Assembly (NCBI GenBank): GCA_014236755.1
Contig: JACCKY010000011.1
Span: 6,467-30,466, forward strand
Reading direction: 5' to 3'
From: Candidatus Petromonas tenebris
Lineage (GTDB): Bacteria; Bacillota; Clostridia; Peptostreptococcales; Caminicellaceae
DNA: 24,000 bases
A program made the position numbers and the translations under genes. The notes under the pieces are model-generated. The model was not told where the DNA came from. It was given only the letters and a program-made list of their open reading frames with translations, and did no database searches. Positions 3,213 to 8,849 of this stretch are shown in pieces. Position 1 is the stretch's first letter, and every line of letters begins with the position of its first letter.

Positions 3213-5717
3213 GTGAAAGAGCTTAAGGTAAGAAAGTCGATGAGGTTAATAATTGTTGCAGTGACGCTACCATTAATATTTAATTTGTTTTTTATAACAG
3301 TAAATGCAAATAAAAATGGTAAAGAACTGGAAATTAAGGACGATTTTAATGATGATCGAATAGATAAAAGTCTGTGGAACATTGTTTTCGGTTCTTGGAT
3401 AGAAGAAAATCATTTAATTCATTCTGAGGATTATTGGCTTCTTAATCCTAAATATCTTAAACTAAAGGAAAATTTATCAAATTATTCTAAATATGAAATT
3501 TCCCTGGACATTGTACCTACTCCTATTGACTACAATAATGAATACACCGATGGAGGCGTTATTTTCGGACAGAATATAAACAAGGGATATGGAATATATT
3601 TGGATACTGTAGACAAAAGTTTAGTTCTTTATGAAAGGGACAATTTATGGGAAGAGAATTATTTAATAGATAAAACTATAGATGAAATGAAGAAAGATGG
3701 AAGTTACAGGTTAAAGCTTGAACTCAATAAAAATAAAAAGGATAAATATGACCTTGAATTAAAAGTAATAGACCTATCCGACAATAATGTGATTTATTGG
3801 CAGATAAAGGAAAACTTAGATTTACATTTTAATGATCTGTTTCTTTATAGCACGTGGGGTAGATGGTCTTCCTTTGATAACTTCCAGTTAAAAGCTGATA
3901 GAGAAGATGCTTCAGTGTATCCCCCAGCTGATTTTACCGTGATTCAGGAGGGTGATGAGCTTAAACTGACCTGGAAGATAGACGATAGTAAAGTAACGGG
4001 ATTTGAAATTTTTTATTCCGATGATGGATCAATTGATGAAGAGGACATAATTCGTGTAGTTAATAAACATGAAAGAAGTTATAATATTGATGTTAGTGAT
4101 GAAATGATAGAATCAGAAAATATAATATTGGGCATAAGGTCGAAAAAAGGAAATGACAGAAGTAAGATAGTAACTGACTCGATTTTTTTAATGGAAAAAC
4201 CCAAGGAGTTTAAATATATAAACTATGGGGATTTTGTAGAGTTTAGATGGGAACACGTTGAGGGAGCAGTTAAATATATTTTGTATGATGAAAATGGGAA
4301 TCCTCTAACTGATGAAAATGGAAATGTCATTGAGACATTAGAAAACAAAATAAATTATAAAAGTATGAGAGAAAATTTAGACTTCTCCAAGTTTACTGTG
4401 GTGGCTTATAATGTAAATAATGGATACAGCCCACCTTCGGATTACCCGGAAGAAATAGTCCTTGAAAGGGTCGAAAACTTTGAAGTTGTTCAAGAAGGGA
4501 GCCTGTATAGTCTCCAATGGAATAGTTTGCCTTTATCACTTGGATATGAATTATACAGTGGAATAACAGAGGAATCTATGGTAAAGCTCAACCAAGACTT
4601 GATTATTGGAACCAGTTACCAATATAACATTTCAGAGGATGATTACGACAGTACTAGATATTTTAAGATAAGGGCTAAGCTTATTCCGGAGACAGATATA
4701 GAGTATTCGGGCTATTCTGAGGTAATTGGGTTTAGACCTATAAAGAAACCTGAAATAATACAGTCTCCTGGTGATTATGAAGCTGAGTCCGGCGAAACCC
4801 TGATTTATCAAATAAAGGTTTACAAGTCTGATTTACCGGCAGACCTGATCATTGAAGCAGGCGACAATTTAGAACTCACAAATGTTTATTATAATGATAC
4901 ACAACTTCAATTCACAACAGAAGGTCACAAATATAAAATTGATTTGTCAAGAATAGATACGGAGGTACTAGAAGTACAATTAGAAATCAAAGCCGTAAAT
5001 ATGACAGAAGATAATATTAATACGAGTTTTAAAATCTATACTGTAGGATATAAAGATAGTGGAGATAAATTTGTCTATAGAACCGCAACCGTATCATCGA
5101 ATATAACAATAGAGGCTTTAGAAGATGTAGGTAATATTGAACTGGGATTAATAGATAGAGAAGACCAAAGTTTCATTACAGATTCTGAACAGTCAATTTT
5201 TTACGGAGAAGAGTTAGGACTGAAATCAATATTTAATTTTAACTCCGGTAATATATATAATCCTATTATTAAATTTACGCTAGGCTATAATCAACTATTT
5301 AAATTCAAATTTCCGGAACCAGTTATAGTAGATGAAACTGGAAATGGGTTGAATTATAGTGCAGTTTATATAAAAAATGATGATAGCTTGGTGATTTTAA
5401 TAAAACCTGCTCTTAGCGATGATAGATTTTTAAAAAATACTGATTACGAAGTAAAACTTCTGACAAATGTGATATCAATAAGTAAAGATGAGATTAGAGA
5501 TATAGCAGATTCGAAAGGTAAACCATTGTGGAAAATTCCTTATATAATTAGAGATATAATCGAAGATGAAGACAAATTATCTTTAAATATTAAAATGCAG
5601 TTATTATGGAATGCTACTCCGAAAATGACAAATGCCAATGACAGGGACCGCTCATCTCAAATAAGAGAGATTAAGCTAAAGCTTGAAAATATGGATGAAT
5701 TACCTGGAGCCTTTTAA
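3213..5717 (+). CDS. Large secreted multidomain protein: N-terminal anchor/signal, LamG/DUF1080-like lectin fold, three FN3-like modules, unknown C-terminal half
   Basis: GTG start 6 nt after AGGAGG (3201-3206). Hydrophobic N-terminus RLIIVAVTLPLIFNLFFITVNA. DFNDDRIDKSLWNIVFGSW...FDNFQL is typical of concanavalin-like domains (about 3330-3896). Three about 90-aa modules carry the FN3 signature: ..L.W....V.G(F/Y)E(I/L)(F/Y).. at PPADFTVIQEGDELKLTWK..GFEIFYS, FKYINYGDFVEFRWEHVEGAVKYILY and FEVVQEGSLYSLQWNSLPLSLGYELYS (about 3918-4742). Confidence 0.7.
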   Translation: MKELKVRKSMRLIIVAVTLPLIFNLFFITVNANKNGKELEIKDDFNDDRIDKSLWNIVFGSWIEENHLIHSEDYWLLNPKYLKLKENLSNYSKYEISLDIVPTPIDYNNEYTDGGVIFGQNINKGYGIYLDTVDKSLVLYERDNLWEENYLIDKTIDEMKKDGSYRLKLELNKNKKDKYDLELKVIDLSDNNVIYWQIKENLDLHFNDLFLYSTWGRWSSFDNFQLKADREDASVYPPADFTVIQEGDELKLTWKIDDSKVTGFEIFYSDDGSIDEEDIIRVVNKHERSYNIDVSDEMIESENIILGIRSKKGNDRSKIVTDSIFLMEKPKEFKYINYGDFVEFRWEHVEGAVKYILYDENGNPLTDENGNVIETLENKINYKSMRENLDFSKFTVVAYNVNNGYSPPSDYPEEIVLERVENFEVVQEGSLYSLQWNSLPLSLGYELYSGITEESMVKLNQDLIIGTSYQYNISEDDYDSTRYFKIRAKLIPETDIEYSGYSEVIGFRPIKKPEIIQSPGDYEAESGETLIYQIKVYKSDLPADLIIEAGDNLELTNVYYNDTQLQFTTEGHKYKIDLSRIDTEVLEVQLEIKAVNMTEDNINTSFKIYTVGYKDSGDKFVYRTATVSSNITIEALEDVGNIELGLIDREDQSFITDSEQSIFYGEELGLKSIFNFNSGNIYNPIIKFTLGYNQLFKFKFPEPVIVDETGNGLNYSAVYIKNDDSLVILIKPALSDDRFLKNTDYEVKLLTNVISISKDEIRDIADSKGKPLWKIPYIIRDIIEDEDKLSLNIKMQLLWNATPKMTNANDRDRSSQIREIKLKLENMDELPGAF

Positions 5718-5748
5718 GCTAAAAATCATTATCAAAGGATGTGGTTAA

Positions 5749-6012
5749 GTGTTTCTAAAAAATTATATGGAAGTAGCTGTAGAGCATGTACTGCCTAACC
5801 TACTAAAGGCATTTGGTAAAATATGTACCTGTGATAAATGTATTATGGATATAAAAGCCATAGCTCTGAATAACTTAAAACCACATTATGTAGTTACTGA
5901 TAAGGGAGAGCTATACTCAAAAGTCAATGAAATGGAAGTACAGTTTCAAACTGATGTAATGAAGGCATTGATAGATGCTATAGCAATAGTATCACAAAAT
6001 CCTAGACATTAG
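5749..6012 (+). CDS. ComFB-family (late competence development protein ComFB-like) small protein
   Basis: 87 aa. The N-terminal (M)FLKNYMEVAVEHVL and the Cys motif CTCDKCIMDIKAIALNNLKPHYV match the ComFB family pattern (NYME..V...L...C.C..C..D..A.ALN.L.P.Y). GTG start 9 nt after AAAGGA. Confidence 0.7.
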   Translation: MFLKNYMEVAVEHVLPNLLKAFGKICTCDKCIMDIKAIALNNLKPHYVVTDKGELYSKVNEMEVQFQTDVMKALIDAIAIVSQNPRH

Positions 6013-6027
6013 AATAAGGTGGAAAAG

Positions 6028-6543
6028 ATGAAAAAAAACATTGTGCTTATAGGGTTTATGGGGACTGGAAAGACTACAGTAGGTAAAAAAGTAGCAGAAA
6101 AAATAAGTTTAAGCTTTATTGATTCCGACGAGGAAATAGTAAAAAAGTCTGGAATGTCAATCAATGAAATATTTAATAGGTTTGGGGAAGAATACTTTAG
6201 AAAAATTGAAGGAGAAGTAATTGAAGAATTATCGAACCTAGAAGGATATGTGATATCTACTGGAGGAGGTATAGTAAAAAATCAAGAGAATATTTTGAAT
6301 TTAAAAGGAAAAGGAGCAATTATTTATCTTAATGGCAGTGCAAAAAAAATCGAAGAAAACATAAAAAAGGATGCTGATAACAGACCTTTACTTAAGACTG
6401 ATAATGTTTTAAATAAAATTATTTCTCTACTAGAGGAAAGAAAAGATTTGTACAGAAAAGCTATGGATTTTGAAATAATTATTGATAGTCTTTCAGTTGA
6501 TGAGGTTGCTGAAAAAGTTATAGATATATACAGAAGTATATGA
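6028..6543 (+). CDS. aroK: Shikimate kinase
   Basis: Walker A motif GFMGTGKTTVGK, about 170 aa, with SxGGG (ISTGGGIV). ATG at 6028 is preferred because AGGTGG lies 6 nt upstream. The in-frame GTG at 6019 sits inside that RBS. Confidence 0.9.
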   Translation: MKKNIVLIGFMGTGKTTVGKKVAEKISLSFIDSDEEIVKKSGMSINEIFNRFGEEYFRKIEGEVIEELSNLEGYVISTGGGIVKNQENILNLKGKGAIIYLNGSAKKIEENIKKDADNRPLLKTDNVLNKIISLLEERKDLYRKAMDFEIIIDSLSVDEVAEKVIDIYRSI

Positions 6544-6550
6544 TCTACTA

Positions 6551-6585
6551 TATAGAGTACTCATGTACTCTATAATTTTGTGTTT
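6551..6585 (+). terminator. Rho-independent terminator after aroK
   Basis: Perfect 10-bp inverted repeat TATAGAGTAC (6551-6560) / GTACTCTATA (6565-6574) with loop TCAT, followed by ATTTTGTGTTT. Confidence 0.55.
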
Positions 6586-6737
6586 AATGAACAAAAACAT
6601 GAAAATAATATAACTTAGAATAAATTGTATTCAAAAGCGTGTTTTTATGTTATGATATTATTGTAATTTTTTAGTAGGAAGTGAAAAATACTAATGAAAA
6701 GATATAAAATACTTGTTTTAAACGGCCCAAATCTTAA

Positions 6738-6753
6738 TATGCTTGTATGCTTG
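6738..6753 (+). repeat. Perfect 8-bp tandem duplication TATGCTTG x2 inside aroQ
   Basis: Copy 1 is 6738-6745 and copy 2 is 6746-6753. Removing one copy restores ..NLNMLGIRE.., the conserved LG.RE motif. Confidence 0.95.
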
Positions 6754-6876
6754 GCATAAGAGAAAAAACATCTATGGAAGGACTACACTTGCTGATATCA
6801 ACTACATGATTGAATGTGAAGCAGAAAGATTAAACATTGAAATCGATTTTTTCCAATCATACGTTGAAGGGAAGTT

Positions 6877-6892
6877 TATAGATCTATAGATC
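6877..6892 (+). repeat. Perfect 8-bp tandem duplication TATAGATC x2 inside aroQ
   Basis: Copy 1 is 6877-6884 and copy 2 is 6885-6892. Removing one copy restores ..GKFIDRIHGA... Confidence 0.95.
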
Positions 6893-7167
6893 GTATACAT
6901 GGAGCTATAAATAGATATCACGGAATCATAATTAATCCCGGGGCTTATACCCATTACAGTATAGCGATAAGGGATGCAATTTCTTCTATAAATTTACCAG
7001 TTACAGAAGTGCATTTATCAAATGTTCATAGCAGAGAAGAATTTAGAAAAAAATCTGTAATTGCTCCTGTATGCATAGGTCAGATAAGTGGATTTAAAGA
7101 GTACAGTTACATACTTGGACTATATGCTCTTCATAATATTTTGAATGATAAAAATGGGGGTATGTAA

Positions 7168-8229
7168 GTGAAGAATAATTTGGATAGATTTAGAGAAAAG
7201 CTGATACAGGAAGGATTAGACGGTGCCGTAGTATATAAACCTGAAAATAGGAGATACCTAAGCGGGTTTACCGGTTCATCGGGATATGTGGTAGTTACTA
7301 GAGATAAAAATTTATTTATTACTGATTTTAGATATGTAGAACAGGCCTCAAAACAGTGTGAAGGTTTTGAAGTATTAAAGCATACTGAAGATAGGACAGT
7401 TTATGATATTCTCAATGAATTGAATGTAGACAAGCTTGGATTTGAGGAAGAGTTTGTAACCTTTATGCAATATGAAAAATTCAATAATAAATTACAGGAT
7501 ATGGAGCTTGTTCCCCTAAAAGGAATTATAAACAAGCTCAGAATGATTAAATCTGATGATGAAATAAAAAAAATTGAGAAAGCAGCTAATATTGCAGATG
7601 AGGCATTTAAACATATATTAGACATAATAAAACCTGGCATTACTGAGTGGGAAGTTTCTCTAGAACTTGAAGGTTTTATGAAAAAAAGTGGTGCTACAGG
7701 AACTTCCTTTGAGAGTATTGTTGCATCCGGGAAGCGATCCTCACTGCCCCATGGTGTAGCGTCTCAAAAAGTCATTGAAAAGGGAGATTTTGTTACTTTA
7801 GATTTTGGATGTGTATATGATGGATATTGCTCCGACATGACGCGAACCATTGTTATAGGTAAGGCCTCCGATAAACAAAAGGAAATATATGAGATAGTTT
7901 TAGAGGCACAGGAATCTGCATTAAAATATATTAAATCAGGCATAAAAGGATTTGAGGCAGACAAGATTGCTAGAGAAATAATTAATGATGAAGGATATGG
8001 AGAATATTTTGGACACGGACTGGGTCACGGAGTTGGCTTGGAAGTCCATGAAGCTCCAAGACTATCACCTATAGGTAAAGATACACTTGAAACTAACATG
8101 GTAGTTACTGATGAGCCAGGAATTTACATACATGATTTTGGTGGAGTAAGAATCGAGGATTTAGTAGTAGTTACAAAGGATGGGTGCAAAGTTTTATCGA
8201 AGTCGCCTAAGAATTTAATTGAACTTTAA
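7168..8229 (+). CDS. M24-family Xaa-Pro aminopeptidase/dipeptidase (B. subtilis YqhT-like)
   Basis: Creatinase-like N-domain plus the M24 metal-ligand motifs DFGCVYDGYCSDMTRT, HGLGHGVGLEVHE and EPGIY..GGVRIED. GTG start directly after the aroQ stop. Conserved position upstream of efp. Confidence 0.9.
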   Translation: MKNNLDRFREKLIQEGLDGAVVYKPENRRYLSGFTGSSGYVVVTRDKNLFITDFRYVEQASKQCEGFEVLKHTEDRTVYDILNELNVDKLGFEEEFVTFMQYEKFNNKLQDMELVPLKGIINKLRMIKSDDEIKKIEKAANIADEAFKHILDIIKPGITEWEVSLELEGFMKKSGATGTSFESIVASGKRSSLPHGVASQKVIEKGDFVTLDFGCVYDGYCSDMTRTIVIGKASDKQKEIYEIVLEAQESALKYIKSGIKGFEADKIAREIINDEGYGEYFGHGLGHGVGLEVHEAPRLSPIGKDTLETNMVVTDEPGIYIHDFGGVRIEDLVVVTKDGCKVLSKSPKNLIEL

Positions 8230-8291
8230 ATCAATATATCAATTATAATTTAATCAATTTAACAATTATCAAAAATTTGGAGGGATATTAA

Positions 8292-8849
8292 ATGATTTCA
8301 GCAGGAGATTTTAGAAAGGGAGTAACCTTTGAAATTGATGGAGAACCATTTGTAGTTGTTGACTTTCAGCATGTAAAACCTGGAAAGGGAGCGGCCTTTG
8401 TGAGAACAAAGTATAAAAGCTTGATTTCAGGAACTATCAGAGAACAGGCATTTAATCCAAATGATAAGTTTCCAAGAGCCCATATAGAGACAAAGGAAAT
8501 GCAGTATTTATATAATGATGGTCAACTTTACTATTTTATGGATAACGAAACTTATGAACAAATACCTCTTACTTATGAGCAGGTAGAGGATGCGATAAAG
8601 TATATCAGAGAAAACGATAGTGCTACCGTTAAGTTTTATAAAGGAAGATGTTTTCAAGTGGAAGCTCCAAACTTTGTTGAGCTGGAGGTTGTGGAAACAG
8701 AGCCTGGAGTAAAGGGAGATACTGCCACTAACGTAACTAAAAGAGCAAAACTTGAAACTGGAGCAGAGGTACAGGTACCTTTATTTGTAAATGAAGGCGA
8801 TAAAATCAAAGTAGATACTAGAACAGGTGAGTATTTATCTAGGGCATAA
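8292..8849 (+). CDS. efp: Elongation factor P
   Basis: 185 aa. [38 protein letters not shown] is the canonical EF-P N-terminus, including the KPGKG loop. GGAGGG RBS. Confidence 0.95.

Follow-up and report, generated by a model that had tools for sequence, protein, structure and literature searches.

Dehydroquinases (DHQases) catalyse step 3 of the shikimate pathway, and the enzymes encoded by aroD (type I) and aroQ (type II) are a classic textbook pair of analogous enzymes. The two types differ in both phylogeny and mechanism (PMC3931744, PMC10772564). In type II DHQases the residues R19, Y24, H81 and R112 are essential (PMC10772564), and type-selective inhibitors are a context in which the DHQase type of an organism matters (PMC3931744).

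Here we analysed a 24,000-nt stretch of DNA from Candidatus Petromonas tenebris, referred to below as the window, whose genome carries the handle G000. We put the probability at roughly 85% that its positions 6694-7167 hold a species-wide fixed aroQ pseudogene, the product of non-orthologous displacement by aroD, in which the indels most likely arose as independent errors.

From its start ATG at 6694 to its final TAA at 7165-7167, the aroQ locus spans 474 nt, which corresponds to an ancestral gene of 459 nt (152 codons plus stop) lengthened by 15 nt through three indels (net +8 -1 +8; Table 1). The first, a doubling of TATGCTTG, lies in codons of the catalytic lid loop, after Leu17, and its unit forms the 5′ arm and loop of a small hairpin, TATGC-TTG-GCATA. 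The second is a shortened A run: only with A7 does the frame give ...REKNIYG..., including the catalytic Arg and Tyr. Both this lesion and the first lie in the lid loop, where these two essential residues are found. The third, a doubling of TATAGATC, generates overlapping 12-bp palindromes, TATAGATCTATA and GATCTATAGATC, as well as a TAG at 6887-6889 that terminates the shifted frame. All three lesions fall in the first 62 codons, within 155 bp, and none occurs in the other 275 bp.

Table 1. Features in and around the aroQ locus, with positions in the window.
Feature	Position	Strand	Basis or remark
aroK (shikimate kinase), intact, upstream of aroQ	6019..6543	+	Pfam SKI, 155 bits
Intrinsic-terminator-like hairpin and T tract after aroK	6551..6574	+	sole terminator-like site in 5900-8400
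TGTTATGAT, extended -10-like promoter element upstream of aroQ	6648..6656	+	read in sequence
aroQ pseudogene (type II 3-dehydroquinate dehydratase)	6694..7167	+	PF01220 match through internal stops
Lesion 1: TATGCTTG doubled head to tail, +8	6738..6753 (6738-6745, 6746-6753)	+	period-8 run
Premature TAA, closes the ATG frame after 21 codons	6757..6759	+	
Lesion 2: A6 run, ancestrally A7 (-1)	6763..6768	+	orthologues read GIRE/DxxxYG
Lesion 3: TATAGATC doubled head to tail, +8	6877..6892 (6877-6884, 6885-6892)	+	after codon Asp61
Last 92 aroQ codons (R62 to stop), ATG frame regained	6893..7167	+	REEFR motif intact
pepP (Xaa-Pro aminopeptidase, M24)	7168..8229	+	Pfam Peptidase_M24, Creatinase_N
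efp (elongation factor P)	8292..8849	+	EFP Pfam domains in gene calls on L027-L029

When the lesions were removed in silico, the locus encoded a 152-aa type II DHQase with every catalytic motif present. This read-through sequence matched PF01220 (DHquinase_II) with 130.4 bits against a cut-off of 23.3, over profile positions 1-137 of 138, and its best homologue in a search of 5.8 billion proteins scored 234 bits. The catalytic and binding residues are all kept, including the lid Arg and Tyr, the His of NPGAYTH, the Glu-x-His of EVHLSN and the Arg of REEFR. The intact orthologues of the two nearest genera (G005, G001) run straight across all three sites, where they read ...NGPNLNLLGIR... and ...EGQIIDKIH... 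or ...EGNIIDIIQ..., indicating that the lesions are real indels relative to the ancestral gene. An uninterrupted ORF of about 140-160 codons is absent at the locus, and three frame changes are needed to recover one. As read from its sequence, then, the locus is a pseudogene of the type II DHQase family rather than a functional member.

An earlier note, made from the letters alone, had described much of this damage. Both exact octamer duplications lie where it placed them, right to the base, and its proposal that the A6 run should be A7 agrees with the orthologues across the site. Reading the frames likewise bore out the net gain of 15 nt, the return of the last 92 codons to the ATG frame and the stops at 6757 and 6887, and the read-through sequence confirmed that the remainder of the gene is intact with its catalytic motifs.

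To compare strains, we retrieved independent contigs (L027-L029 and L049-L055) through exact matches to the neighbouring proteins. They come from one ENA analysis and eight Logan run assemblies, and represent at least nine samples besides the window's (ERZ27245788, SRR13298156, ERR14750235, SRR35175347, SRR23823826, SRR11805452, SRR12611921, SRR13298155 and SRR13298159). Over 3.6-7 kb, the identity of the ten contigs to the window is 99.85-100% (0-8 SNPs per 5.3 kb); one strain has a synonymous-type change at 7015, inside the pseudogene. Both doubled octamers and the A6 run are present in every contig covering the sites, in a sampled population that is nearly clonal (≤0.15% divergence). On the strength of these independent assemblies, we conclude that the lesions are genuine and that the whole sampled range of the species is fixed for them. 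No intact allele emerged: among the 5.8 billion proteins, none matched the read-through AroQ at more than 70% identity, the nearest named match being that of Caminicella sporogenes (G005), at 68%. Pattern scans of JGI metagenomes, for either allele state and with a lesion-independent anchor, gave 0 matches for both patterns. Phase variation of aroQ was considered and rejected, as the lesions consist of two copies, are not repetitive and do not vary from strain to strain.

The earlier note had suggested a search for a second DHQase, and the genome indeed contains exactly one other, an intact type I aroD on contig C115. Its product matches PF01487 with 255 bits over profile positions 1-229 of 230, without stops, and aligns end to end with the solved type I DHQases 3JS3 and 2YR1. 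The SSHDF His and SKIAVMP Lys motifs are conserved; we take these to be His143 (the general base) and Lys170 (the Schiff base), respectively. On longer contigs of the same species, aroD is the final gene of a trpDCFBA-aroF-tyrA-aroB-aroA-pheA-aroD operon, which the window's genome tiles with contigs C27-C115-C116. Intact copies of aroC, aroE and aroK are present, and no other step of the shikimate pathway is missing. Because a complete pathway needs one dehydroquinase and aroD is intact, loss of aroQ would be tolerated.

Several features set this aroD apart from its surroundings. Its GC3 is 21.5%, against 30-35% in its operon neighbours, and its product shares only 39-45% identity with the AroD of same-order relatives. 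The best database matches reach 60-70% identity, and the named ones include Anaerovirgula and Alkaliphilus; the nearest homologue adjoins an IclR regulator and a transporter, outside any aro operon. An IS630-type transposase lies directly downstream of aroD. Judging by GC3, identity and neighbourhood, aroD was probably acquired horizontally. Elsewhere in the same operon, at the aroB/aroA junction, C27:17862-18588 of the window's genome and L031:7213-7940 are 94.9% identical within flanks of 99.5-99.9%, and the assembly breaks there; this divergence may come from recombination with imported DNA, or from a metagenome-derived assembly that mixes strains.

We compared the distribution of the two types across 30 relatives, relative to which the window's genome sits on a long branch, with the nearest genus only about 70% identical. 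Within the same family, aroQ is found in 9/9 relatives and aroD in 0/9, while families f3, f8 and f12 have aroD alone, and across the order the two genes are almost mutually exclusive. Where a relative has a PF01220 match (n=25), aroQ reads uninterrupted over the full profile in 23; the gene is split over two contig ends in G008 and is a truncated C-terminal relic in G029. In the large-genome relative G003, aroQ itself ends the aro operon, in the order pheA-aroE-aroK-aroQ.

G029 is the only other genome with both types. Its aroQ relic, of 87 C-terminal codons, lies directly after aroB (L030:1280-1540; G029:C1:139779-140039) and carries a degraded motif, NAGVYTHTS instead of NPGAYTHYS. We interpret G029 as an independent, later stage of the same displacement. 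In the window's own lineage, aroQ and aroD may have coexisted long before aroQ was lost. That aroD was gained, and when, is suggested by these 30 relatives.

The read-through sequence also bears on when aroQ died. Across 36 columns that are ≥98% conserved, it deviates at only 1 (QSN to QSY), which is within the spread of functional homologues. Its identity to the G005 and G001 proteins is 69-71%, equal to the value between G005 and G001 themselves and similar to that of the neighbouring pepP. Accelerated evolution of a dead aroQ frame is rejected by this single deviation and by the equal distance to the relatives, and its absence indicates that inactivation was recent relative to the genus split. 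Purifying selection appears to have acted on the gene along almost the entire long branch to the species; the gene appears to have died recently relative to the genus split, yet earlier than the ancestor shared by all the sampled strains. The 'recent decay' read in the earlier note thus holds relative to the relatives; as a strain-level or laboratory event it does not, since the lesions are fixed in all sampled strains. Much heavier decay can be seen elsewhere in the genome, where a relic of an IS256-family transposase (C75:66242-67324) has 13 internal stops and is far more decayed than aroQ.

The layout of the neighbouring genes offers a reason for the survival of the dead copy. The hairpin after aroK sets that gene apart from the aroQ-pepP unit, and a scan of 5900-8400 placed no terminator between aroQ and pepP. 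The GTG start of pepP abuts the aroQ stop, and its ribosome-binding site (GGGGG) lies inside the aroQ 3′ end. The extended -10 noticed earlier upstream of aroQ is present as read (TGTTATGAT); a consensus promoter scan passed over it, since a -35 hexamer is required there. With a terminator after aroK, none before pepP and the pepP ribosome-binding site within aroQ, the aroQ region probably still serves pepP and efp: pepP is probably co-transcribed with it, and the TGTTATGAT element probably drives pepP as well. Dead aroQ would then probably have been kept because its promoter and 3′ end still serve pepP(-efp). The aroQ-pepP-efp arrangement is probably conserved, and the nearest genera show the orders aroK-aroQ-pepP (G005) and aroQ-pepP (G001). 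Further upstream in the window, Pfam gave no match for either of two large ORFs (59-2338, 759 aa; 3213-5717, 834 aa). The latter carries most of the strain-distinguishing SNPs (9 sites in about 2.5 kb) and may encode a fast-evolving surface protein.

Together, these observations suggest the following course of events. An aroD gene, taken up horizontally as its composition and context suggest, would have joined the end of the trp-aro operon, in this lineage alone within the sampled family. The redundancy that it brought would have freed aroQ from selection, and the indels would most likely be separate errors of replication or repair in an aroQ that selection no longer maintained. With three frameshifting indels in the first 62 codons, translation of aroQ would end after 21 residues, leaving a displaced gene that is, at the current stage, dead but not yet deleted. 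One point counts against this reading: three indels with almost no substitutions make a somewhat more indel-rich pattern than usual neutral decay.

That pattern could instead stem from one clustered event, such as an error-prone repair patch, that made all three indels and killed an aroQ still under selection, followed by drift or hitch-hiking. The confinement of the lesions to a short 5′ stretch, the near lack of substitution decay and the nearly clonal population would all fit such an event. The protein and metagenome searches, however, gave no direct evidence for it and no intermediate alleles. Moreover, once a first frameshift has occurred further indels are neutral, so clustering within a 474-bp gene is weak evidence. 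We consider a single clustered event unlikely, and favour displacement by aroD with independent errors in an aroQ already free of selection.

The octamer duplications themselves invite a more specific explanation. In the 2.94-Mb genome we counted 118 tandem duplications of 8 bp that are perfect and non-trivial, whereas a shuffle gave 72; lengths of 6, 7, 9 and 10 bp show the same modest excess. At this frequency, 0.019 would be expected per 474 bp, and the probability of two or more is about 2e-4; both of those in aroQ sit at frame breaks. Neither site shows flanking microhomology, the period-8 match being exactly 8 at each. Both octamers overlap small palindromes (TATGC-TTG-GCATA and TATAGATCTATA), which may, speculatively, favour hairpin-associated errors.

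To look for similar damage elsewhere, we collapsed every exact tandem duplication of 4-20 bp in the genome and sought restored ORFs. Most hits of this screen were ordinary boundaries between genes (valS+folC and thiE+thiC, for example), and the 8-bp duplications in ORF-free gaps lie mostly in AT-rich intergenic sequence. A third exact 8-bp case was found outside aroQ, where two copies of TTAATTTC (C92:7220-7235) frameshift a relic of an IS4-type DDE transposase. With the duplication collapsed, the Pfam DDE_Tnp_1 domain runs on without a break. An independent JGI metagenome strain (L056) carries the duplication too, and the period-8 match at this site is 9, with a single flanking base. Genome-wide, frame-breaking exact tandem duplications of at least 7 bp number three, each of 8 bp, and the collapse screen gave none of 7, 10, 11, 13 or 14 bp. 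This uniform length is suggestive and statistically thin. A genome-wide 8-bp mutational signature was rejected as a strong claim, as C92 is the only further real case; the wider search for 8-bp duplications proposed earlier gave no excess of gene-breaking ones.

An exact 8-bp length recalls the target-site duplications (TSDs) that the IS256 and ISL3 families make, and the earlier note had likened the octamers to TSD footprints or, alternatively, to products of slippage or microhomology repair. Elements of the right kind are present, namely one intact IS256-family transposase together with IS256 and ISL3 relics; the note had suggested a search for IS families with 8-bp TSDs. The octamers could then be footprints of an inserted and later excised element, a reading favoured by the exact length of both duplications without flanking microhomology, by this transposase complement, by the third case at C92 and by the lack of frame-breaking duplications of other lengths from 7 to 14 bp among those screened (7, 10, 11, 13 and 14 bp).

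Several observations argue against such footprints. First, Ku (PF02735) is absent from the 99.95% complete genome (the control search was positive in B. subtilis), and without Ku-dependent end joining it is hard to see how a donor site could be resealed after excision. Second, IS256 and ISL3 move by copy-out-paste-in, and the rare excision of an IS removes one target copy. TSD footprints are known chiefly from cut-and-paste transposons of the eukaryotic hAT and Tc1/mariner groups, and bacterial IS elements are not known to leave them routinely. Third, no transposon remnant lies between the octamer copies in aroQ, which abut directly, and the three sites (TATGCTTG, TATAGATC and TTAATTTC) share no target motif, being alike only in a leading T. 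Fourth, clean terminal inverted repeats or a target duplication could not be defined for the intact IS256 copy. Finally, the 8-bp excess over the shuffle is no greater than that of neighbouring lengths, and two cycles of insertion and excision in one 474-bp gene would be unparsimonious. We regard this origin as quite improbable, and as the earlier note put them, neither TSD footprints nor slippage and microhomology repair find support here, with flanking microhomology and Ku-dependent end joining both absent.

A related possibility is that this Ku-less lineage has a process that makes exact 8-bp duplications by filling in 8-bp staggered cuts. Candidate sources of such cuts would be abortive or reversed attack by a transposase with 8-bp TSDs, or another nuclease. 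We give this idea similarly low odds, and return to independent replication or repair errors as the most likely source of the indels.

Other decayed genes and repeats were seen in the same genome. A phosphofructokinase gene (pfkA; C119, about 5660-6020, minus strand) lacks some 40 codons between RHCGD and KxHSIIxxAEG, where the frame also changes, and is a probable pseudogene. The feoB gene (C61:47947, minus strand) is split at a AATGAATG site (AATG×2) inside the FeoB_Cyto domain; with a good ribosome-binding site (GAGGTG) and an ATG available to its second half, it may be a viable two-gene split rather than a dead gene. A repeat of about 110 bp, dispersed through the genome and with a hairpin at its end (GAAGAGCTGTTTT...AAAACAGCTCTTC; e.g. 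L031:19370-19480), has 113 matches on the contigs of the genome and 0 in the window (the nearest is at C69:44883-44992), which is very abundant for 2.9 Mb; it resembles elements of the MITE or REP type. More than 30 intergenic gaps (e.g. C13:3711, C15:16946 and C53:85841) contain a 7-bp tandem motif, GCTCTTG/GCCAAGA, which often lies about 50 bp from GTCACCT and is probably a second dispersed element distinct from the 110-bp repeat.

The lesions could in principle be an assembly or consensus artefact, the true genome having each octamer once and seven As in the run. In favour of this reading, the window's genome is a draft of 120 contigs, with breaks where strains vary. Against this, the ten contigs were produced by different pipelines (MEGAHIT-style ENA, Logan) and share the three lesions while differing by SNPs elsewhere, and a 152-aa product of the species is absent from the 5.8-billion-protein collection built from those assemblies. 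Identical lesions in independently assembled contigs from at least nine other samples exclude an assembly error for practical purposes, in line with the earlier note's remark that repeated 8-bp duplications are not typical sequencing errors, and we rate the chance of an artefact as minute.

Recoding, in which ribosomes would hop 8 nt between octamer copies (CUU to CUU and GAU to GAU) and slip -1 on the A run to make a little AroQ, could draw on the matching take-off and landing codons, the in-frame 3′ part (net +15), the hairpin UAUGC-UUG-GCAUA after the first take-off codon and the nearly undamaged coding sequence, yet we find it scarcely credible: a tandem duplication supplies such codons automatically, an in-frame net change has a 1 in 3 chance, three low-efficiency events in series would give negligible yield, no stimulatory elements are known for 8-nt hops, no Rfam element matches the aroQ region at E≤1, none of the relatives shows any of the interruptions (G005 and G001, of the nearest genera, read straight through), so that no recoding signal is conserved, and aroD makes the product unnecessary.

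A broken aroQ alongside aroD is expected biology, an ordinary gene replacement, in which the damage pattern is the unusual part. Its value lies in offering a snapshot of non-orthologous gene displacement in a core pathway, with aroD at the end of the operon and aroQ dead yet hardly decayed. For annotation, the species should be scored as type I-dependent for shikimate step 3. The repeated exact 8-bp duplications without microhomology are a small curiosity concerning indel mechanisms, not a new biological system.

The octamer sites resemble hAT and Tc1/mariner footprints in being exact, short, fixed-length duplications without microhomology; they differ in having no remnant, no end joining and no shared motif. 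Like slippage frameshift pseudogenes, aroQ carries exact head-to-tail copies of short native sequence that shift the frame and are fixed in all strains; two duplications of equal length (8 bp) in one small gene, without microhomology, distinguish it from them. With the AroQ of Caminicella sporogenes DSM 14501 and the nearest orthologues, the locus is homologous over profile positions 1-137, about 68-71% identical in read-through and alike in its catalytic motifs. The Caminicella gene is intact, whereas the window copy has the +8, -1 and +8 changes and two premature stops, and would yield only 21 N-terminal residues. As in other cases of non-orthologous DHQase displacement, there is one working type per organism; here, in contrast, the displaced aroQ is still present and barely decayed, which suggests a displacement caught at an intermediate stage.
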